64,000 bases of DNA from Escherichia phage CL1. Position 1 is the first letter of the stretch. Each line of letters starts with the position of its first letter. The stretch is taken from the sequence record OK040806. One strand, given 5' to 3'. Positions 25,747 through 63,161 of this stretch are shown piece by piece. The notes below the pieces were generated by a model. The model saw only the letters and a list, made by a program, of their open reading frames with translations. It made no database searches and had not been told where the DNA came from. Both the position numbers and the translations under genes were made by a program.

Positions 25747-26787
25747 ATGGAGCAGTATACGCTAACAAAACTTCCAGATTCAGTTACACATGTCTTTATT
25801 GACTCTGACAGTATTGCCTATAAAGGTGCTTGTGTAGTTGAGAAAGCAAAATATAAATATGTCAATAAACTCACAGCAGAAGAATCTGAACCATTTGATA
25901 ATGCAAAAGATGCTGCAAGATGGTTAGCAGACCAGAGAATCCTTGTAGAAGAGCTTGGCCTAACATTTGATGAAGATGAATGGGAAAGACAGACTTGGAA
26001 AGAAGCTAAGAGTGAAAAAGAAGCTATCATGGCTACTCAGCAGGTTCTTCAGGAATGGCTTAAGATTGTTGGTAAAGAAAGAACTTGGGTAGGTTACTTA
26101 ACAGAAAAGGGTGTACATAAACATAAAGACATTAAAGGTCTTGAGCACCAATATCAAGGTAACCGTAAGGATGCTGTCACACCAACACACTTAGTTGCTT
26201 GTCGTGAATATCTTCTGTCAAGACCAGAGTTTAAGCTTCTCCGTGGGGGATTTGAAGCCGATTCCATCGTAATTGCTAAAGCTGAAAAGATGGGTAAGAA
26301 GGCTGCTCTTATGAGTATTGACAAAGACCTTCGACAAGCTGAGGGGACTTATTGTATTGATATGACTTATGAAAAGTCACCACTAATTTTTATTGCTGAT
26401 AATAATGTTGGTGATATCTGGGATTGTCCTATCAAATCAAAACCAAAAGCTGCAAAAACAGTTGGTGTAGGTTTTAAATTCTTGTGTTATCAGGCTGTTG
26501 CTGGAGATAATGCAGACAACTACTTCGGCCTTAAAGGTGCTGGAAAGGTAGCTGTGATGAATGCTTTAGATGGTAAAGAGACATATAAAGAGTGTCTTGA
26601 TGCTATCTATGAACTCTATGCTAAAAAAGAGTCTTACACCTATGTATCATGGGATGGACAGACTGTCACAAAGACACCATTAGAGTTAATGGAACAGCAT
26701 TTCTGGATAGCATATCAAGAGAGAAGTCCAAAAGATAATTTCTCTTTTAAGAAATATAATTGGGAGCCGTGTATGAATGAAGATTAA
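25747..26787 (+). CDS. 5'-3' exonuclease / flap endonuclease (RNase H-like)
   Basis: 346 aa; N-terminal acidic cluster (VFIDSDSIAYKGA) and later SIDKDL resemble the FEN/PIN active site of T4 RNase H and T5 D15. Confidence 0.55.
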   Translation: MEQYTLTKLPDSVTHVFIDSDSIAYKGACVVEKAKYKYVNKLTAEESEPFDNAKDAARWLADQRILVEELGLTFDEDEWERQTWKEAKSEKEAIMATQQVLQEWLKIVGKERTWVGYLTEKGVHKHKDIKGLEHQYQGNRKDAVTPTHLVACREYLLSRPEFKLLRGGFEADSIVIAKAEKMGKKAALMSIDKDLRQAEGTYCIDMTYEKSPLIFIADNNVGDIWDCPIKSKPKAAKTVGVGFKFLCYQAVAGDNADNYFGLKGAGKVAVMNALDGKETYKECLDAIYELYAKKESYTYVSWDGQTVTKTPLELMEQHFWIAYQERSPKDNFSFKKYNWEPCMNED

Positions 26788-27274
26788 AGGATTTGGCAAT
26801 TGTCCCACCTATGGACATTGGGTGTCTTTATGTGGGGAAGTTGACCCCACTAAACATTTTGGTTTTGTCTATTTAGTACACTGTAAGAAAACCGGACAAT
26901 ATTACATCGGAAAGAAACAGCTTAATAGTGTGACCAAAAGAAAAGTTGCTGGCAAGACTCGGAAGAAGGTAGTCACTAAGGAAAGTGATTGGATGACTTA
27001 TGAGACTTCTTCTGAGTATATTAAAAAAGATATTGAGAGTTTTGGGAAAGAATTTTTTGACTTTTACATTATCCAAACCTACTACACGAAAGGTGGCCTA
27101 GTTTATGGTGAAGCAAATCTCCAACATAAATTCGATGTAATGACAAAAAGGATTGACTCTAAGCTCAGACTCTTCTACAATGCCAATATTGCAGCAATTA
27201 AGTTTATTACTAAAGAAACTTATGAAGATGCTGAAAAAAGAATCCATAAGGTAATGAAAGCGAATTGTGCTTGA
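26777..27274 (+). CDS. GIY-YIG-like nuclease domain protein (possible homing endonuclease)
   Basis: FVYLVHCKKTGQYYIGKK has the GIY...YIG spacing; free-standing between RNase H and nrd genes. Confidence 0.3.
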   Translation: MKIKGFGNCPTYGHWVSLCGEVDPTKHFGFVYLVHCKKTGQYYIGKKQLNSVTKRKVAGKTRKKVVTKESDWMTYETSSEYIKKDIESFGKEFFDFYIIQTYYTKGGLVYGEANLQHKFDVMTKRIDSKLRLFYNANIAAIKFITKETYEDAEKRIHKVMKANCA

Positions 27275-27295: not shown

Positions 27296-27544
27296 ATGTT
27301 TAACAAAAGTAAAGCTGTGAGTCATGTAGCAAAAGTTGACAGCAAGATTGAAGAACTTGAGCGCATTCTTGCAAATGCCAGAGAGTCAATCATTAAAGAA
27401 GTTGAAGCTGTTGAATCTCAAATGCAGCACCTAATGCTTAAACGTCAAGAGCTACGTGAGCATCTGGAATATATTGAAACGCGAGAGCTAAAGGTTAACA
27501 AATATTTTAAGGAGTCAGAATGTTTAACTCAAGAGAATCAGTAA
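27296..27544 (+). CDS. hypothetical coiled-coil protein
   Basis: track start is TTG; ATG (MFNKSK) preceded by GAGAGAGA. Confidence 0.3.
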   Translation: MFNKSKAVSHVAKVDSKIEELERILANARESIIKEVEAVESQMQHLMLKRQELREHLEYIETRELKVNKYFKESECLTQENQ

Positions 27545-28275
27545 AAAACTGGAACCTTCGTTGTGGAAACACCCAAAAGCAACCTTACAGTGACGAGTAT
27601 TGGGAATCTTTAAAGTCTCAATCTCTATGTATGCTTGAAGAAGCAAAAGAGCTTGTGAAGGCAATTGAAGAGAAAGACCCAATTGAGACACTGGATGCTC
27701 AGGCAGATTTGCAATATGTTCTTGACGGTTTGATTTACCTGTCACAACATGACCATAACGGTGCTATGAAAGCTGTTTGCCATAATAATGACCTGAAGTA
27801 CACAGATGACTATGAAGAAGCTTTAAAACGTCTTGCAGATATTGAGAAGCGTACTGGTCAAGAGTGTATCATCAGAATGTCAGTAGTTGATGGTAAAGAG
27901 TGGTATGCAATTGTTCGTGCATCCGATGGGAAGATTATGAAACAGTCTAATCTCCCTAAAGTTCAGCTTGGTGAATACATTGTAGAACTTGAAAGCCAAG
28001 AACTTTTTGTGGTAGTATCTGACACATGCGTTATCTGCAAAGGTATTGTAGGTAGCTTAAAGGATTTGGGTGTAGATGGTTTTGTAGAAGTTAATCCAAT
28101 TACCTCTAAAGCAGATAAAGATTTCTGTAAAGAGAATGGACTATGGATTGCAGATATTATCTACTATGATGGTGAGCAGTTCCATGTAACCTCATACCCG
28201 AAACTGAATTATGATGCTAATAACCTGAAGTGCTGGTTAAAAGGGGTTGGTTATAATGGATTCACAGAACATTAA
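27520..28275 (+). CDS. MazG-like nucleotide pyrophosphohydrolase domain protein
   Basis: EEAKELVKAIEEKD...DAQADLQYVL resembles the MazG E-x-x-E...E/D motif pair; motif-level only. Confidence 0.3.
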   Translation: MFNSRESVKNWNLRCGNTQKQPYSDEYWESLKSQSLCMLEEAKELVKAIEEKDPIETLDAQADLQYVLDGLIYLSQHDHNGAMKAVCHNNDLKYTDDYEEALKRLADIEKRTGQECIIRMSVVDGKEWYAIVRASDGKIMKQSNLPKVQLGEYIVELESQELFVVVSDTCVICKGIVGSLKDLGVDGFVEVNPITSKADKDFCKENGLWIADIIYYDGEQFHVTSYPKLNYDANNLKCWLKGVGYNGFTEH

Positions 28276-32813: not shown

Positions 32814-33012
32814 ACGCCTTTGGGAAGGCTTGGTTGTTGATGCACCAGCCATTGTGATTGGTATGCTTGTTGTTAACCTATTTACTGATTTTGAACAAGG
32901 TTCATTGTTTGGAGCCATGTTACTATGGGTTATCATTGAAATATTAGAGATACAGCTAGGCATCACTAAAAAACTAAGAAAACTCATTTCAAAGTTTTCT
33001 AAAAAGATTTAA
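32806..33012 (+). CDS. small membrane protein
   Basis: 68 aa, two hydrophobic segments. Confidence 0.3.
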   Translation: MLKRLWEGLVVDAPAIVIGMLVVNLFTDFEQGSLFGAMLLWVIIEILEIQLGITKKLRKLISKFSKKI

Positions 33013-33020
33013 AATGAAAG

Positions 33021-33041
33021 GGTCTCTTCGGAGACCTTTTT
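33021..33041 (+). terminator. intrinsic terminator upstream of nrdD
   Basis: GGTCTC-TTCG-GAGACC stem followed by TTTTT. Confidence 0.7.
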
Positions 33042-33060: not shown

Positions 33061-35205
33061 ATGAACAAAGTACAGATTATTAAAAAGAATGGCTCACTTG
33101 AAGAACCTGATATCAAAAAAGTTTTAGCAGCAGTAACTAAGTCAGCTAACAGGGTTGGGTATAAAGAACTTCCACCAGATGTTACCCAAGCTCTTGAGTC
33201 AGCATTTATGAGGATTCTGGTAAAGTCCACTAAGCAGAATAATTTGCTCATCTCGGTAAATGATATTCACAGTATTGTTGAGGGTGCTTTGGCAGAAGTT
33301 AATCACGAGATTTATGAGTCCTACTCAACATATAGAAATTACCGTAAAGAGGTTGCTCAAAATTGGGACGAGCTTTACCAAAAGACTAGAGATACACTCT
33401 TCTTAGGTGACCGTGAAAATGCTAACTTTGACAGCAGTTTAATTTCTACAAAAGGTTCAATTATTCGTGGTTATCTGACTAAAGAAATCTTTAAACAGTA
33501 CCATTTAACACCAGAGGAACTTGAAGCCATTGAAAAAGGGTTTATCTACATCCATGACTTAAGAGACCTAATTTTTGGTGGTATCAACTGTTGCCTGTTC
33601 GACATTGGTAAAGTACTGAAAGGTGGCTTTGAAATGTCTGGAATTGAATACTGTGAACCGAAGTCTGTGCTGTCAGCCTTACAGGTTATTGGTGATGTAG
33701 TTCTTTCAGCAACTGCACAGCAATTTGGTGGCTTTACTTTAGCAGAGATTGACAAGGTACTTGTACCGTATGCTAAAAAATCTTTAGTGTACCACTCAGA
33801 GAAAGCTGAAGAGTACGGAATACCTAAAGAGCAACACTATAATTACGTAATGGAGCAATTACAGAATGAGTTAACACAAGGTTTCCAATCTCTTGAAATG
33901 AAACTTAACACTGTTCCTTGCAGTCGCGGTGATTTTGCATTTACTACTCTGACATTTGGCCTGTTGGAACCAGATATGCACAATGAAGATAACCGTCTTC
34001 AGTTTATGATTGCCAATACAATCCTTAATGTAAGGATGAACGGGCAAGGAAAAAGCAAAAAACCTGTTGTGTTTCCTAAACTTGTGTATATCTATGAAGA
34101 GACAAGACATAAACTTGATGTGTGCCAAGCAAGGTTGTTTGAAAAAGCTATTGAGTGTTGCTCTAAAGCGATGTATCCAGATTTCTTAAGTGTATCTGGT
34201 CATGGTGCTGTAGCAGATGCTTTTAAGCGTTCTGGTAAGGTGATTTCACCGATGGGTTGCAGAGCTTTCTTATCTCCATATCTTAACGAGAATGGGGAAG
34301 AGTTCTATGTAGGTCGTGCTAACATTGGTGCTGTATCTTTGAACTTGCCAATGATTTACCAGTATTCTAAAGATAATGGTTTAGATTTCTGGAAAGAGCT
34401 TGATAAGTACCTAGAGATGATTCGCAGCTTCCACAAGAAACGCTATGAAATGATTGCTAACATGCCAGCAAGCTCTAACCCTCTTGCGTTCACACAAGGT
34501 GGTCTGTACAAAGGGACTAAGAAGCCTACTGATAAGGTTGGTTGGGATATCGTGAAGTCCTTCACAGCTTCTTTTGGGGTTACTGCGCTTGATGAGTTAT
34601 CTGTTCTCGCTGAAGGTAAACGACTTCATGAAGTTGGTAGCTATAGTTTTGCATACGATGTTCTGGCATACATCAACATGAAAACTGAAGAGTTTAAAAA
34701 TGAAGATGGTTTCTTATATGCTGTCTATGGCACTCCAGCAGAATCACTTTGTGGAACTCAACTAAAACAGTTCAGAGAAATGTTTGGTGTTATCAAAGGT
34801 GTTTCTGACAAGGAATACTTTACAAATAGTTTCCATATGAATGTTGCAGCAGACATCTCACCATTTGAGAAGCAGGACTTAGAAGAGCCATTCTTCCATA
34901 TCTGTAGAGGTGGCAGAATCCAGTATGTCAGGGTAGCTAACCCAGAAAACTTAACAGCACTTAAGAGTTGTATTACAAGAGGGATGTTGAAAGGTTTTTA
35001 TCAGGGACTTAACTTTGACCTAGCAATTTGTGAGCATTGTGGTAGCAGACCAAAGGCCGATGTTGAAGAATGTGAGGTTTGCCATTCACATGATATCTCT
35101 GTGATTAACAGGGTGTGTGGGTATCTTGGGTGGACTAAGATTAAAGGTGAATCCCGAATGAACGATGCAAAAATTGCTGAGATTCGTGATAGAGTCTCTA
35201 TGTAA
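33061..35205 (+). CDS. nrdD: anaerobic ribonucleoside-triphosphate reductase
   Basis: 714 aa; C-terminal Cys cluster (CEHCGS...CEVCHSHD) and glycyl-radical motif RVCGYLG. Confidence 0.9.
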   Translation: MNKVQIIKKNGSLEEPDIKKVLAAVTKSANRVGYKELPPDVTQALESAFMRILVKSTKQNNLLISVNDIHSIVEGALAEVNHEIYESYSTYRNYRKEVAQNWDELYQKTRDTLFLGDRENANFDSSLISTKGSIIRGYLTKEIFKQYHLTPEELEAIEKGFIYIHDLRDLIFGGINCCLFDIGKVLKGGFEMSGIEYCEPKSVLSALQVIGDVVLSATAQQFGGFTLAEIDKVLVPYAKKSLVYHSEKAEEYGIPKEQHYNYVMEQLQNELTQGFQSLEMKLNTVPCSRGDFAFTTLTFGLLEPDMHNEDNRLQFMIANTILNVRMNGQGKSKKPVVFPKLVYIYEETRHKLDVCQARLFEKAIECCSKAMYPDFLSVSGHGAVADAFKRSGKVISPMGCRAFLSPYLNENGEEFYVGRANIGAVSLNLPMIYQYSKDNGLDFWKELDKYLEMIRSFHKKRYEMIANMPASSNPLAFTQGGLYKGTKKPTDKVGWDIVKSFTASFGVTALDELSVLAEGKRLHEVGSYSFAYDVLAYINMKTEEFKNEDGFLYAVYGTPAESLCGTQLKQFREMFGVIKGVSDKEYFTNSFHMNVAADISPFEKQDLEEPFFHICRGGRIQYVRVANPENLTALKSCITRGMLKGFYQGLNFDLAICEHCGSRPKADVEECEVCHSHDISVINRVCGYLGWTKIKGESRMNDAKIAEIRDRVSM

Positions 35206-36840: not shown

Positions 36841-37161
36841 ATGAGCAAAGTTTATAACACTCGTAAATTACAGATTTTCGTACTGTGCCAGTTTATGGCT
36901 AAAGAGTATAACTACTACTACTGCGGTACAGGGTTCATTAGTGATGATGACGGCTCATATCTACCATTCAAAGAGGCTGTAAAACTCTTCAATGAAGAGG
37001 AAAGCTCTAAGAAAGATATTGAAAAGGTTAAGCTAACCTACAGCAAGAAAGATAAGAAGATTATCTGCCTAGATAACTTTGTAAAAGTTACTGGAGAAGC
37101 GAAAGAGTTTATGGATGAGAGTGAGATTTCATTCACAAGCATCTTGAAAGTAGCTCAGTAA
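36841..37161 (+). CDS. hypothetical protein
   Basis: 106-aa ORF followed by terminator. Confidence 0.35.
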   Translation: MSKVYNTRKLQIFVLCQFMAKEYNYYYCGTGFISDDDGSYLPFKEAVKLFNEEESSKKDIEKVKLTYSKKDKKIICLDNFVKVTGEAKEFMDESEISFTSILKVAQ

Positions 37162-37172
37162 ACAGATACTAT

Positions 37173-37203
37173 AAGGGGACTGTAAAGGTTCCCTTTTTAT
37201 TTT
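37173..37203 (+). terminator. intrinsic terminator
   Basis: AAGGGGA-loop-TTCCCTT stem followed by TTTATTTT. Confidence 0.5.
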
Positions 37204-37212
37204 GGAGATAAC

Positions 37213-37728
37213 ATGTATCTGTCAAACCTGAAACGTTCGGCTGCAATGTCAGTTCTAAGACTCAGTTTTGAGGAACGTCAAGAGTTCATTGACTCCCACC
37301 AATACGACCCTTCTAACTCAAATCACATGATTCTCTGGAATCGTGAGAGTACTCGTGAAAGAGCACTATTCCGCTATTACCCACACTACACTATAGATAA
37401 CTTGTATGAATGTTTTGTTGTGAAGAACACCATTGCAGTGCTCAATAAGCTTTGCAGATACACAGGTAACAAGTCCTTCACATTAGGTCACCACAAACCT
37501 GTTACAAAAGGTGGTGAACATCACTGCGCAAACTGGTTTATCCAAACTAAAGCTGATAACCAGAAGCAAGGAGATAGACTCCTAAGCATCCCTAAGATGA
37601 CCTATGAAGAGCAAGAGAAATATATCAAAAATAATATGCCAGATGTGCTTGACAACAACTATACAGATTTGGCAATATCTCTCCTGTTGAAGTTCGAGAC
37701 AGTTTATAGGGCAACTTACAATGGCTAG
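37213..37728 (+). CDS. HNH endonuclease (putative homing endonuclease)
   Basis: GHHKPVTKGGEHHCANWFIQTKADNQ matches HNH (H-H...GG...N...N) core. Confidence 0.5.
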   Translation: MYLSNLKRSAAMSVLRLSFEERQEFIDSHQYDPSNSNHMILWNRESTRERALFRYYPHYTIDNLYECFVVKNTIAVLNKLCRYTGNKSFTLGHHKPVTKGGEHHCANWFIQTKADNQKQGDRLLSIPKMTYEEQEKYIKNNMPDVLDNNYTDLAISLLLKFETVYRATYNG

Positions 37729-37999
37729 AACAGATTGGGAAGTAAAAGAACTTGTAAGTGATGCTGGAAATGGCTGTGAGATGTATATGATTCGTGGTCA
37801 TGTACCAGACCCATTAGCTATTGAGATGATTGACCATCACACAAGTGGATTCTACAAAGAACTCGGTGAACCAAGTATTGAAAGAACTTGGACAAAACCA
37901 GTTCCAGATAGCACAGGTAACTGCTCAGTAATCTATCACATTGTGAATCCACAAAAATGCAAAACAGCTATGGCTGTGACATTCGTAACTTTTGATTGA
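37721..37999 (+). CDS. hypothetical protein
   Basis: 92-aa ORF, ATGGCT overlap with HNH gene end. Confidence 0.3.
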   Translation: MARTDWEVKELVSDAGNGCEMYMIRGHVPDPLAIEMIDHHTSGFYKELGEPSIERTWTKPVPDSTGNCSVIYHIVNPQKCKTAMAVTFVTFD

Positions 38000-38010
38000 G
38001 AGGGAAAACT

Positions 38011-38892
38011 ATGAAAACATCTATCCGTGTTACAGTTCATTCACCAACTAAAGGTACTCATGAAGAAGAGTTTAACATCATCCAATTTCCTTCTGGTGAG
38101 ATTGGTGGACACTTTTCACAAGAGCTTGTTGATTTCACTGCTTATGCAGCATCATCCATCAACAATGTGATTATGATTGTAAAAGGTTATGATAAAGACA
38201 CATTGTTTGCTGTGGCACTTGCTAAAGAAGCAATTGATGATTTAGTCCCTCATGATTATGCTTTAAAGACTGTCATCTTTTACTACTTACCAAATGCACG
38301 ATACGACCGTCACATGTTTAAAGGTGATGCAGCAGCTTTAAAGGTTTTTGCTAAGCAGGTCAATGCAATGGGGTTTGGCGCAGTCTGTGCAGTTGACCCT
38401 CACAGTTATGTACCAGATAACCTGTTTAACTGCTTCCAGAGTATTCCTCAAAAGGAAATTGCAGTCCACTATGCAAATGACCCACTGGTTGATTACTTAG
38501 TAGCCCCAGATGCAGGTGCTTCTAAGAAGATTGCAGAGACTGCTAAAGAGGTGGATAAACCATATGTCACAATGTCTAAAGTACGTAACCTTAAGACTGG
38601 TGAAATTACTGGTATGCGAATCCTTGATGATGTTGATTTGACAGATAAAACCGTCATGATTCTGGATGATATTTGCGATGGTGGTCGAACCTTCATAGAG
38701 GCAGCTAAACATCTTCGTGAAGCAGGTGCAAGACGTGTGGAACTCTATGTAACTCATGGCATTTTCTCTAAAGGTGTTGAAAACTTGCTTGACAACGGCA
38801 TTGACCACATCTACACTACAAACTCTTTAGGGGAAGCTAAAGACCGTGGCTTAACACATTATGGTCAAGTTACTGTAGCAAACCTTGATTAA
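38011..38892 (+). CDS. prs: ribose-phosphate pyrophosphokinase (Prs) family protein; possible ADP-ribose pyrophosphokinase
   Basis: Prs-like blocks: YYLPNARYDR, AVDPHSY, LVAPDAGASKKIA, PRPP-binding loop VMILDDICDGGRTF...ARRVELYVTHGIFSKG; start at ATG with GAGGGA SD. Confidence 0.7.
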   Translation: MKTSIRVTVHSPTKGTHEEEFNIIQFPSGEIGGHFSQELVDFTAYAASSINNVIMIVKGYDKDTLFAVALAKEAIDDLVPHDYALKTVIFYYLPNARYDRHMFKGDAAALKVFAKQVNAMGFGAVCAVDPHSYVPDNLFNCFQSIPQKEIAVHYANDPLVDYLVAPDAGASKKIAETAKEVDKPYVTMSKVRNLKTGEITGMRILDDVDLTDKTVMILDDICDGGRTFIEAAKHLREAGARRVELYVTHGIFSKGVENLLDNGIDHIYTTNSLGEAKDRGLTHYGQVTVANLD

Positions 38893-38901
38893 AACTTTAT
38901 A

Positions 38902-38923
38902 GGGGCTTACAAGCCCCATTTTG
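38902..38923 (+). promoter_or_regulatory. GGGGCTT-ACA-AGCCCC stem-loop between the Prs-like and NAMPT-like genes
   Basis: hairpin 38902-38917 followed by ATTTTG (partial U-tract); same stem sequence family as the cassette hairpins. Confidence 0.45.
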
Positions 38924-38937
38924 AGAGAGATTAAAAG

Positions 38938-40719
38938 ATGACTAACTCACTTTATGCAGTACCAGCAGGTTTAAACGCAGATGCTTACAAATCTGGCCAT
39001 ATTTATCAGTATCCTAGTGTAACAGAGCATCTAATGTTCAACCTGACACCACGTAGTGATAAATGGTTTAACAGCCCTTTAGCAATTGATGGTGTAGTAG
39101 CTTTTGGTATTCAACGTTTTGTTAAAGATTACTTGATAGACCACTGGAATGCCACCTTCTTTGAACGTGACAAAAAAGAAGCAATTGACGAAATCTTGGA
39201 AGTCATGAACGGTGTTCTGGGTAAAGATGCTATTGGTCGAGAACATTGGGAAGCACTTCACGACTTAGGTTATCTACCAGTTGAAGTATACGCTGTAGAA
39301 GAAGGTACAGTTGTCCCTATGCGTGTTCCAATGATTGTATTCCAGAACACTGTTTCAGGTTTCCATTGGGTAGCAGGGTATCTAGAAGATGCTTTCTCTG
39401 CTGAGATTTGGAAGGCTTGTACCATTGCAACTATTGCATTGCACTACAAACGTATCTGTAAGAAGTGGTCTGACCTTACTTGTGACAATGACTTACATTT
39501 ACCTTATCAGTGCCATGATTTTGCTATGCGTGGTATGTCCGGCTTTACTGATGACGCATTTAACGCTGTAGGTCACTTGACTAGCTTTAAAGGAACTGAT
39601 AGCTTCCCTGCTGTGTATACAGCTAAACGCACCTATGGACAGTCCTACCCAATCTCTGATATCGGTGGTTCTGTACCAGCCACTGAGCATTCTGTAATGT
39701 GTGCAAACATTGCTTGGGAAGGTGGTAATGAGTTGATTGAAGAAGAAAGACGCTTTAAAGGTGAGTTACAAACCTTTCGTCGTTTCTTAACAGAAACTTA
39801 CCCAACTGGTATTGCAAGTGTTGTTTCAGATACTTATAACTTCTGGAGAACTGTGTCAGAAATCTTACCAGCACTTCGCAAAGAGATTATGGAACGTGAT
39901 GGTAAACTGGTGATTCGTCCTGACTCTGGAGACCCTGTACATATTGTCACAGGATATAAAGCAATCCACTTAGAGTGTGCTAAAAAGGCTTATTATGAAC
40001 ACCTAAGCAAGCTGGAAGCCAGTGACACAATGCTGAATGCTGTTCTGAACATGAAGCTTGAGAACATCAACTATGGTATTGCTGGGTGGCTACTGTCAGA
40101 AGGCTACGAAATGGTTGTTGACAGAGAAGACTTTGAAGTTGCCGATACAGTAATGTTGAAAAATGCTTATATGGTTGGTTCTGCAAACGTTGTAACGCGT
40201 CCTGTAGCGGAGATTGATGGAGCTATCAAGACACTGTATAACATCTTTGGAGGAACTATCAACTCTAAAGGTTTTAAAGTACTGGATGAGCACATCGGGC
40301 TTATTTATGGCGACTCTATCACGTTGGAACGTGCAAACGAAATACTGAAGCGTTTGTATGAAATGGGTTTTGCAAGCTCTAACGTAGTGTTTGGTGTAGG
40401 TTCTTACACTTACCAGTACATGACTCGTGACACCTTTGCATTTGCTGTCAAAGCAACTCTTGCAAGCATTGGTGGTAAAGAGATTATGCTTGCAAAAGAC
40501 CCTAAAACAGATAGTGGTGTTAAGAAGTCTGCTTTTGGTGGAGTAGCACCTATGTGGGATGGTGAAAATCTGAAAGCTGTAGATGGCTATGGGTTCCAGA
40601 GCTTTGCAGATGCACTTGAACACCCAGCTTGTGCTTTACGTTTAGTCTTTAGCGACTCTGAGCAGTTCGGCTACACGACTCTTGGTGATATTCGAAATAA
40701 TATTGACAAGCAGCTTTAA
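38938..40719 (+). CDS. nadV: nicotinamide phosphoribosyltransferase (NadV/NAMPT) family protein; possible nicotinamide ADP-ribose transferase
   Basis: 593-aa NAPRTase-family-like sequence immediately downstream of the Prs-like gene; longer than typical bacterial NadV. Confidence 0.7.
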   Translation: MTNSLYAVPAGLNADAYKSGHIYQYPSVTEHLMFNLTPRSDKWFNSPLAIDGVVAFGIQRFVKDYLIDHWNATFFERDKKEAIDEILEVMNGVLGKDAIGREHWEALHDLGYLPVEVYAVEEGTVVPMRVPMIVFQNTVSGFHWVAGYLEDAFSAEIWKACTIATIALHYKRICKKWSDLTCDNDLHLPYQCHDFAMRGMSGFTDDAFNAVGHLTSFKGTDSFPAVYTAKRTYGQSYPISDIGGSVPATEHSVMCANIAWEGGNELIEEERRFKGELQTFRRFLTETYPTGIASVVSDTYNFWRTVSEILPALRKEIMERDGKLVIRPDSGDPVHIVTGYKAIHLECAKKAYYEHLSKLEASDTMLNAVLNMKLENINYGIAGWLLSEGYEMVVDREDFEVADTVMLKNAYMVGSANVVTRPVAEIDGAIKTLYNIFGGTINSKGFKVLDEHIGLIYGDSITLERANEILKRLYEMGFASSNVVFGVGSYTYQYMTRDTFAFAVKATLASIGGKEIMLAKDPKTDSGVKKSAFGGVAPMWDGENLKAVDGYGFQSFADALEHPACALRLVFSDSEQFGYTTLGDIRNNIDKQL

Positions 40720-40734
40720 AAGTATATGATAAAA

Positions 40735-40755
40735 GGCTCCTACGGGAGCCTTTTT
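40735..40755 (+). terminator. intrinsic terminator after NAMPT-like gene
   Basis: GGCTCC-TACG-GGAGCC stem followed by TTTTT. Confidence 0.7.
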
Positions 40756-49263: not shown

Positions 49264-50049
49264 ATGGGTATTGTGAAAATCATCAATGGTGATATCTTTG
49301 CAGCATTTGATAAAGGTAAGTTTGATGTCATCGGTCACGGTTGCAACTGTATGAACTTAATGGGTGCAGGTATCGCTGACAAGATTTCTAAACTTTACCC
49401 AAAAGCATATGAGACTGATACAGAAGTTTATCTGTATGCAGGTGGCATAGGCCACAAGCCCTGTGAGAATTTACTAGGCAATTTCTCTGTAGCACGTTTA
49501 AAACAAGGTCGTATAGCTAACCTTTACACTCAGCTTAAGACTGGTAAAGATGCCCGATACAGTGCTTTAGAGTCATCTTTGAAACAACTTAACAGATACT
49601 GTGAAGTAAATCAGTTGAAGAAAGTTGGCTTGCCTATGATTGGTGCAGGTATCGGTGGGCTAGACCCTCAAGCCGTCACAGTTATCATTAATCAGGTGAT
49701 GAAGAGTGTAGATGTGTATCTGTATGTCTACGAGACAAAGATGTACAACGAGTTACACTCAGGTTGGAAGAACTACTGCGAACCAGAATACTTTGCAGGT
49801 GTAGTAACGTTCACAGACAATACAGTTACCCTCTTCAGACGAAGAAAAGGTAAGATACATCAAAGTAACCCTCCGGTTGAGAAGATGTCTCTAAGTAACG
49901 CTCTAGTTACCCACCTGTCGAAGAGCAATCACAGGATAGCTGTAACATTTGGTAGTGATGCAGATACATATATCTATGCAAGAACTGATGAGGATATCGA
50001 GACGGTCTTCTCTTCACCAGAAGTTACCTTTTTAGGCGCAAAGAACTAA
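49264..50049 (+). CDS. macro-domain-like protein (ADP-ribose binding/processing fold) with C-terminal extension
   Basis: N-terminal INGDIF...DVIGHGCNCMNLMGAGIA and later GLPMIGAGIGGLDP resemble the two Gly-rich macro-domain motifs; ~100-aa unknown extension. Confidence 0.45.
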   Translation: MGIVKIINGDIFAAFDKGKFDVIGHGCNCMNLMGAGIADKISKLYPKAYETDTEVYLYAGGIGHKPCENLLGNFSVARLKQGRIANLYTQLKTGKDARYSALESSLKQLNRYCEVNQLKKVGLPMIGAGIGGLDPQAVTVIINQVMKSVDVYLYVYETKMYNELHSGWKNYCEPEYFAGVVTFTDNTVTLFRRRKGKIHQSNPPVEKMSLSNALVTHLSKSNHRIAVTFGSDADTYIYARTDEDIETVFSSPEVTFLGAKN

Positions 50050-62696: not shown

Positions 62697-63161
62697 TTAC
62701 TTTGGATATACACTGTCAAGATAAATGTCAGCTTCCATTCTTCGTCTATTTTTAAGACCGTTTGAAGTGACCTTCTGACCTTTGACTGTGACCTTGTTCC
62801 ACCACTGCATAGCTTCTGCACAACCCACCTTATTACCAGCATTGTGACGCTTGATAAATGTAGAATCCTGCATAGCTGTGATACCGATGTTGTATGTTTC
62901 ACTTACAAGTGCATCGAACTCATTCTGAGAAGTTGGAGCCTTGATAGCTTTATTCACTGCTGCAACAAACTTCTCAACATCTGCGAGAAGATACTGTTCG
63001 GCTTGTTCAGCAGTAATTTTCATACCCATCTTAACAGGTTTTCCGTCAATACGGATTGTACCATACCCGATTGTTGGGATTCCGGCAGAGTCTTTATAAG
63101 CCTCTAACTTCAGACCTTCAAAGAACTTAATGGCTTCTAAACCTTTTCTTGAGAGTTGCAT
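62697..63161 (-). CDS. endolysin (T4-lysozyme-like muramidase)
   Basis: 154 aa; N-terminal FFEGLKLEAYKDSAGIPTIGYG parallels the T4 lysozyme catalytic Glu/Asp region. Confidence 0.8.
   Translation of the reverse strand: MQLSRKGLEAIKFFEGLKLEAYKDSAGIPTIGYGTIRIDGKPVKMGMKITAEQAEQYLLADVEKFVAAVNKAIKAPTSQNEFDALVSETYNIGITAMQDSTFIKRHNAGNKVGCAEAMQWWNKVTVKGQKVTSNGLKNRRRMEADIYLDSVYPK

Follow-up and report, generated by a model that had tools for sequence, protein, structure and literature searches.

A two-gene locus of Escherichia phage CL1 very probably encodes NAD+ reconstitution pathway 1, known from a sister Felixounavirus

The DNA stretch analyzed here (the window) comprises 64,000 nucleotides of Escherichia phage CL1 (sequence record OK040806). 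It carries on the + strand two co-directional genes separated by a 45-nt spacer: adps (38011–38892), assigned to ADP-ribose pyrophosphate synthetase, a Prs homolog of 293 aa, and namat (38938–40719), assigned to nicotinamide ADP-ribose transferase, a NAMPT homolog of 593 aa. A megablast search found the locus to be 100% identical to that of Escherichia phage C600M2 (OK040807.1; Ounavirinae, genus Felixounavirus), and 256 further related records match it, nearly all naming the pair Prs and NAMPT or NaPRT. A preliminary description of the same stretch had recognized a Prs-family gene with a phosphoribosyl pyrophosphate (PRPP)-binding loop upstream of a NAMPT-like gene and had read the pair as a candidate NAD+ reconstitution module; both gene assignments were borne out.

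The gene adps starts with an ATG at 38011, directly preceded by GAGGG, and ends with a stop codon at 38890–38892. Its assignment draws on the open reading frame (ORF) listing, on matches to Pfam (Pribosyltran, 8.8e-12; Pribosyl_synth, 2.9e-09) and PHROG (phrog 619, "ribose-phosphate pyrophosphokinase"), and on sequence motifs. With bona fide Prs enzymes (E. coli, B. subtilis, human PRPS1) Adps shares the two-domain phosphoribosyltransferase fold, as well as the ARxDR, DxHS/A and PDAG motifs, the catalytic Lys/Arg and the DDxxDxxxT loop. In the CL1 protein these appear as ARYDR (residues 96–100), DPHS (129–132), APDAGA (165–170), the catalytic K190 within SKVR, and the ribose-phosphate (PRPP) loop DDICDGGRT (219–227). 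K190 and R192 align with K194 and R196 of human PRPS1; the catalytic Lys of Prs-type chemistry is K197 in B. subtilis Prs and K162 in Adps of the Bacillus phage SPbetaL1 (Osterman et al., bioRxiv 10.1101/2024.02.11.579819).

The resemblance to genuine Prs is nevertheless limited. Matches to solved Prs chains reach E-values of merely 1e-10 to 1e-17, and the ribose-phosphate loop reads DGGRT in place of DTCGT in human PRPS1 or STGGT in archaeal Prs. The protein stays below all NCBIfam Prs equivalog cut-offs (the best, NF002095, gives 103 bits against 296 required) and passes only the broad subfamily TIGR01251 (118 against 113). This agrees with the published placement of Adps in a separate, nearly phage-only clade, for which we found homologs in 1250 records.

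The second gene, namat, was assigned using the ORF listing, Pfam (NAPRTase, 1.3e-34; NAMPT_N), PHROG (phrog_448, "nicotinamide phosphoribosyl transferase", 5.8e-201), structure prediction and motifs, in line with the earlier placement of its product in the NAMPT/NadV family. In a sequence search of the PDB, the crystal structures of SPbetaL1 Namat (9W5W and 9W5X; Lan et al., NAR 2026, PMC12774641) scored best, at E ~1e-126, and H. ducreyi NadV and mammalian NAMPT came after them. An AlphaFold2 model (pLDDT 93.4, pTM 0.91) used as a Foldseek query returned the same entries at the top (E 3.5e-53, target-normalized TM 0.95), before H. ducreyi NadV and human NAMPT. The two-gene operon, the Namat fold and the catalytic core are common to SPbetaL1 and CL1, with ~37–38% identity between the Namat proteins over the structural alignment. 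Residues F195, R198, D221, H251, R327 and D329 of the CL1 protein do not vary in an alignment of 32 sequences, the SPbetaL1 core consisting of F189, R192, D215, the catalytic His, R306 and D308 (PMC12774641).

The feature that tells Namat from Nampt is an adenine "selectivity clamp", built from the SCH motif GSX-phi-X-phi-X-phi-TRD, in which the X residues are aromatic, and the SCL (beta1–beta2) loop. The latter provides a third stacking residue, either Arg at the third position of the loop or a Lys/Tyr that is then followed by a stacking fourth residue (PMC12774641). CL1 Namat carries GSYTYQYMTRD at residues 488–498 in agreement with this signature; its phi3 position is occupied by Met, as in Felixounavirus Bas63, Asn or Val being more usual, and the pattern GS[YF]T[YF]Q[YF]xTRD is common to the SPbetaL1 and CL1 proteins. 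The SCL segment R39-S40-D41-K42-W43 is identical to that of Bas63 Namat, the Lys-type SCL example in PMC12774641, whereas SPbetaL1 has Arg40 where CL1 has Lys-Trp. At the position of the clamp signature, H. ducreyi NadV (9KE8) has GVGAQTYQRNTRD.

The closest characterized system is that of phage Bas63 itself (Escherichia phage JohannRWettstein, MZ501086.1). There, bas63_0079 (882 nt) and bas63_0080 (1782 nt) match adps and namat in length, gene order and neighbors, and ungapped, full-length comparison of the products with those of CL1 gives 78% identity for Adps and 97% for Namat. The stem of the spacer hairpin, the terminator and the Namat insertions described below are also shared; what differs is an ~800-bp recombinant block comprising Adps residues 1–180 (67% identical) and the upstream gene ORF92 (68.5%). 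The genes at 38011–40719 are therefore orthologous to the founding pair of NAD+ reconstitution pathway 1 (NARP1); this means membership in this pathway and not mere family resemblance. We accordingly regard the locus, with high confidence, as a two-gene NARP1 module.

NARP1 was discovered in Bas63 as the function of genes 79–80. A Bas63 mutant lacking them is ~20-fold sensitive to the SIR2-HerA defense, NAD+ levels are restored by the wild-type phage only, ADP-ribose pyrophosphate (ADPR-PP; m/z 720.010) was seen in vivo only in infected, defense-carrying cells, and the effect does not depend on the host genes pncC and nadR (10.1101/2024.02.11.579819). The purified SPbetaL1 enzymes convert ADP-ribose (ADPR) and ATP to ADPR-PP, and ADPR-PP and nicotinamide to NAD+ (10.1101/2024.02.11.579819). 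By analogy, a NAD+-depleting defense of the host (SIR2-HerA, type I Thoeris, DSR1/2, SEFIR and similar) would split NAD+ into ADP-ribose and nicotinamide during CL1 infection. Adps would then use ATP to pyrophosphorylate ADPR at its 1″ position, yielding ADPR-PP, and Namat would exchange this pyrophosphate for nicotinamide, giving NAD+ directly, with neither a nicotinamide mononucleotide (NMN) intermediate nor an NMN adenylyltransferase (NMNAT). Our own computations cover orthology, synteny, motif conservation and fold; the enzymology is taken from SPbetaL1 (biochemistry, structures) and Bas63 (genetics, metabolomics).

The names attached to the pair by Pfam, PHROG, NCBIfam and GenBank, all of which read Prs plus NAMPT or NaPRT, speak for classical salvage, in which PRPP from the Prs-like enzyme and nicotinamide are turned into NMN by the NAMPT-like enzyme, and the host finishes NAD+ synthesis through NadR or through PncC and then NadD. 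The evidence from both proteins runs counter to this. SPbetaL1 Adps, unlike bona fide Prs, makes no PRPP: it yielded no product with ribose-5-phosphate and ATP in a Prs activity test (10.1101/2024.02.11.579819). CL1 Adps falls short of every Prs equivalog cut-off, and CL1 Namat has the adenine clamp that NAMPTs lack. Classical salvage is already largely refuted for Bas63, and for CL1 we consider it very improbable. The preference for the ADPR route voiced in the preliminary description is thereby upheld, resting on orthology to Bas63 79–80 and on the published signature of ADPR-PP selectivity.

The same description had also favored this route for want of an NMNAT gene in the window. The observation itself holds and extends further: the annotation of the entire 88-kb C600M2 genome lists no NMNAT, nor does that of the Bas63 record around the locus (44–70 kb), and a Pfam scan of hypothetical proteins ≥130 aa in length (37 in all, ORF171 separately and the other 36 concatenated) gave no CTP_transf_like or Nudix match. 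Serglycin matches in the concatenated scan are artefacts of the GS linkers. As an argument for the ADPR route, the missing NMNAT carries little weight by itself, because host NadR or PncC could complete classical salvage; orthology and the clamp signature are what sustain that conclusion.

Other phages combine similar enzymes with additional ones, so an NARP2-like or extended system also has to be weighed: the pair could work with a phage NMNAT (NARP2), with a Macro phosphatase, Adpp, encoded in the operon (NARP1-AP), or with a RyR-domain glycosidase (RyDEP). NARP2 of Vibrio phage KVP40 consists of Nampt/NadV and Nmnat/NatV; the NAMPT fold and the nicotinamide chemistry are common to it and the CL1 locus, while the latter has Adps and no NMNAT was found. 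NARP2 is excluded on these grounds, there being no NMNAT in the annotation and no cytidylyltransferase-like or Nudix domain in the Pfam scan of hypothetical proteins ≥130 aa in length. NARP1-AP (Adps-Adpp-Namat) was described in Vibrio phage Gary, and the same layout was found in Vibrio phage Cody; CL1 shares the Adps and Namat homologs, but its macro gene lies 8.5 kb downstream, outside the operon. An NARP1-AP operon is defined by a Macro gene within two genes on either side (Osterman et al. 2026). Pfam found no Macro domain in the neighbors ORF171, ORF92, ORF114, ORF111 and ORF58, and neither the neighbors nor the hypothetical proteins scanned across the genome gave a match to the RyR/R12 domain (PF02026). 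With neither Macro nor RyR in the flanking genes, NARP1-AP and the RyDEP-extended form are ruled out under the operon definition of the 2026 preprints.

What keeps an extended form under discussion is the homology of the distal macro protein to the Macro "phosphatase" whose gene separates those of Adps and Namat in Cody. The distal protein is, on the other hand, of the widespread T4 Tk.4 type, closer to Tk.4 (~35% identity) than to the Cody protein (29%). All NARP2-like and extended alternatives together appear highly unlikely, and the locus is a plain two-gene NARP1.

The 261-aa distal macro protein (49264–50049, + strand) is encoded by the only macro gene observed (Pfam Macro, 1e-07; phrog_335, "phosphatase"). 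Its best PDB match is OARD1/TARG1 (8e-6), with weak matches to Poa1p and the DarG macro domain; the alignment with the Cody protein (E 8e-15) spans the whole macro domain. A C-terminal extension of ~100 aa is specific to Felixounaviruses, and the Bas63 counterpart is labeled "putative phosphatase". The Tk.4-type family, to whose T4 member the protein is closer than to the Cody one, is represented in 2857 phage records; among them are T4-like phages, where the gene adjoins that of the valyl-tRNA synthetase modifier and not an NARP1 operon. The protein could act as an ADPR-1″-phosphate phosphatase in trans or reverse ADP-ribosylation. Operon-based surveys looking two genes to either side would miss a macro gene located 8.5 kb from NARP1.

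The main departure from Bas63 concerns Adps. The segment 37750–38550, covering ORF92 and Adps codons 1–180, has 63–75% nucleotide identity to Bas63, whereas the flanks are at ~85–99%, mostly above 90%; at the protein level, the C-terminal domain of Adps is 95% identical, against the 67% given above for residues 1–180. Synonymous divergence (dS) is ~1.8, i.e., saturated, inside the block and ~0.3 outside, and the ratio of non-synonymous to synonymous divergence (dN/dS) is ~0.13 in both. A low dN/dS combined with saturated dS indicates an old recombined allele under purifying selection; diversifying selection as the source of the divergence in ORF92 and the Adps N-terminus is ruled out by the same values. 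The pattern points to the import by recombination of an old allele, which would have split adps between its two domains. The Adps allele is common, with 791 member sequences in its cluster and ~150 phage records at ≥90% identity, while the ORF92 allele is rare (>95% identity in two of 230 records).

This divergence, both in nucleotides and in the N-terminal 180 residues, raises the alternative that this Adps, with an N-terminal domain derived from a distant lineage, uses another ADPR derivative or is inactive. We consider such neofunctionalization most improbable: the substitution pattern is that of an old allele under purifying selection, every catalytic and substrate-loop motif is kept, and the allele is frequent among Felixounaviruses.

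Several points weigh against the assignment of the CL1 pair to NARP1. Bas63 Adps could not be purified, so that the SPbetaL1 homolog supplies the in vitro evidence for ADPR-PP synthesis (10.1101/2024.02.11.579819). For CL1, enzyme activities and rescue from defense are extrapolated from the published work on SPbetaL1 and Bas63, and at 67% identity over residues 1–180 the function of its Adps allele is likewise an extrapolation. SPbetaL1 Namat keeps some PRPP-to-NMN activity in vitro (PMC12774641), and CL1 Namat may possess a secondary activity of this classical kind.

With its 593 aa, CL1 Namat is longer than SPbetaL1 Namat and H. ducreyi NadV (491–496 aa); the preliminary description had put it at ~100 aa above typical NadV. 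The ~100 extra residues are due to two insertions, placed by alignment to SPbetaL1 Namat and 31 homologs and absent from the SPbetaL1 enzyme. The first (residues ~258–272, ~14 aa; 39709–39753, + strand) is helical in the AlphaFold2 model; the second (residues ~343–427, ~85 aa; 39964–40218, + strand) forms an alpha/beta subdomain that AlphaFold2 predicts to fold autonomously and for which no recognizable fold was found in the PDB. Both occur at length-variable hot-spots of the Namat clade, where other branches have unrelated inserts. The long form of Namat (582–610 aa) is retained throughout the Ounavirinae-type branch, down to 46% identity, and the second insertion is specific to this branch, which includes Felixounavirus, phiSUSP1 and Silverhawkium types, Yersinia phage P778, Pectobacterium phage Arno162 and Salmonella phage SB18.

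Both insertions are also present in Bas63 Namat, which is functional in vivo, and are therefore compatible with NARP1 function. Given its conservation down to 46% identity and its predicted autonomous folding, we speculate, while regarding this as rather unlikely, that the second insertion is a functional add-on absent from the SPbetaL1 enzyme, for example, one that docks Adps and so lets the labile ADPR-PP be channeled from one enzyme to the other, or a regulatory or anti-inhibitor element. If so, the Namat family would have a structural variant in the Ounavirinae enzyme. The NARP1 and Namat literature, as far as it was accessible to us, does not discuss these insertions.

The spacer between the two genes contains a hairpin, GGGGCT (38902–38907)-TACA-AGCCCC (38912–38917), on the + strand, followed by AUUUUG (dG −11.5 kcal/mol). 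It had been described earlier as GGGGCTT/AAGCCCC; the hairpin is indeed present, but a 7-bp stem would leave a 2-nt loop, and the realistic form has 6 bp and a 4-nt loop. The stem is the same in Bas63 and the loop differs. This element may be a weak attenuator or contribute to RNA stability. In some relatives, the adps–namat spacer holds an inserted gene for a 163-aa HNH endonuclease.

Downstream of namat lies the intrinsic terminator noted in the preliminary description (40731–40754, + strand), with the structure AAAAGGCTCC-TACG-GGAGCCTTTT followed by the T-run TAATTT. Its dG of −16.5 makes it the top site of the terminator scan in the region, and it is conserved in Bas63. A promoter-like sequence TTGACA-16-TATGAT (11/12 consensus positions) overlaps the 3′ end of namat and abuts the terminator hairpin, the whole cassette occupying 40703–40754 (+ strand); it probably closes the NARP1 unit and starts the next one. 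A cassette built alike is found upstream at 37144–37195 (+ strand), where TTGAAA-17-TACTAT abuts a terminator-like hairpin (37173–37195) with a T-run and a ribosome-binding site (RBS). The transcription unit is likely bounded upstream by this cassette, which is conserved in Bas63. ORF171, ORF92, adps and namat thus probably form a four-gene transcription unit delimited by the two promoter–hairpin cassettes, as far as their sequences can indicate.

Cassettes of this kind, in which sigma-70-like −35/−10 elements abut a GC hairpin followed by a T-run, an RBS and a start codon, recur six times in the window: at 32988–33040, 37144–37195 and 40703–40754 on the + strand and at 62719–62670, 60656–60605 and 58497–58437 on the − strand. 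Their arrangement suggests that transcripts from a cassette's own promoter, lacking the 5′ arm of the hairpin, would escape termination, while read-through from upstream would be stopped. Promoter/stem-loop cassettes of T4-type phages resemble them.

Of the two genes preceding adps, ORF171 (37213–37728, + strand; phrog_3500) contains a weak HNH-like stretch and is 95% identical to bas63_0077. Lying between the upstream cassette and adps, it is possibly co-transcribed with the latter. ORF92 (37721–37999, + strand; phrog_4726) overlaps the ORF171 stop codon and ends 11 nt before adps. Its role as a general NARP1 accessory gene was considered and rejected, as it is restricted to phages of the Ounavirinae type, with only 230 records compared with the 1250 that have an Adps homolog.

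The pair represents known NARP1 biology, the pathway having been discovered in a phage of the same genus. The functional reading of the proposed module was correct, but it is a congener of the founding example and not a new system; as the counterparts of these genes in a sister phage served to define NARP1, the locus adds little as a discovery. Its relevance lies rather in annotation. More than 200 Felixounavirus records still label the pair ribose-phosphate pyrophosphokinase and nicotinamide/nicotinate phosphoribosyltransferase, and the public naming of adps and namat is out of date. The NCBIfam equivalog NF006629 names Namat "nicotinate phosphoribosyltransferase" at 465 bits (cut-off 405), and through this wrong name automated annotation hides a counter-defense module. 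GenBank names for the pair are Prs and NAMPT or NaPRT, and in one record adps is tagged "nadR". Felixounaviruses are common candidates for therapy and biocontrol; the presence of NARP1 predicts resistance to NAD+ depletion of the SIR2, TIR and SEFIR types and, possibly, sensitivity to aRES.

Elsewhere in the window, two proteins annotated as hypothetical contain recognizable domains: a SegE-type GIY-YIG endonuclease (1.2e-26; 26777–27274) and a MazG/PRA-PH-like pyrophosphohydrolase (5.4e-05; 27520–28275). The gene nrdD (33061–35205) is intact, whereas its split Bas63 counterpart is annotated as two joined pieces with a homing endonuclease gene between them. Relative to OK040807.1, the offset of the window shifts eight times, corresponding to at least eight small indels (~1–3 bp) near 15.0–17.5 kb, 28.5–29 kb, 45–45.5 kb, 50–50.5 kb, 56.5–57 kb and 62.5–63 kb; the NARP1 locus itself is free of them.

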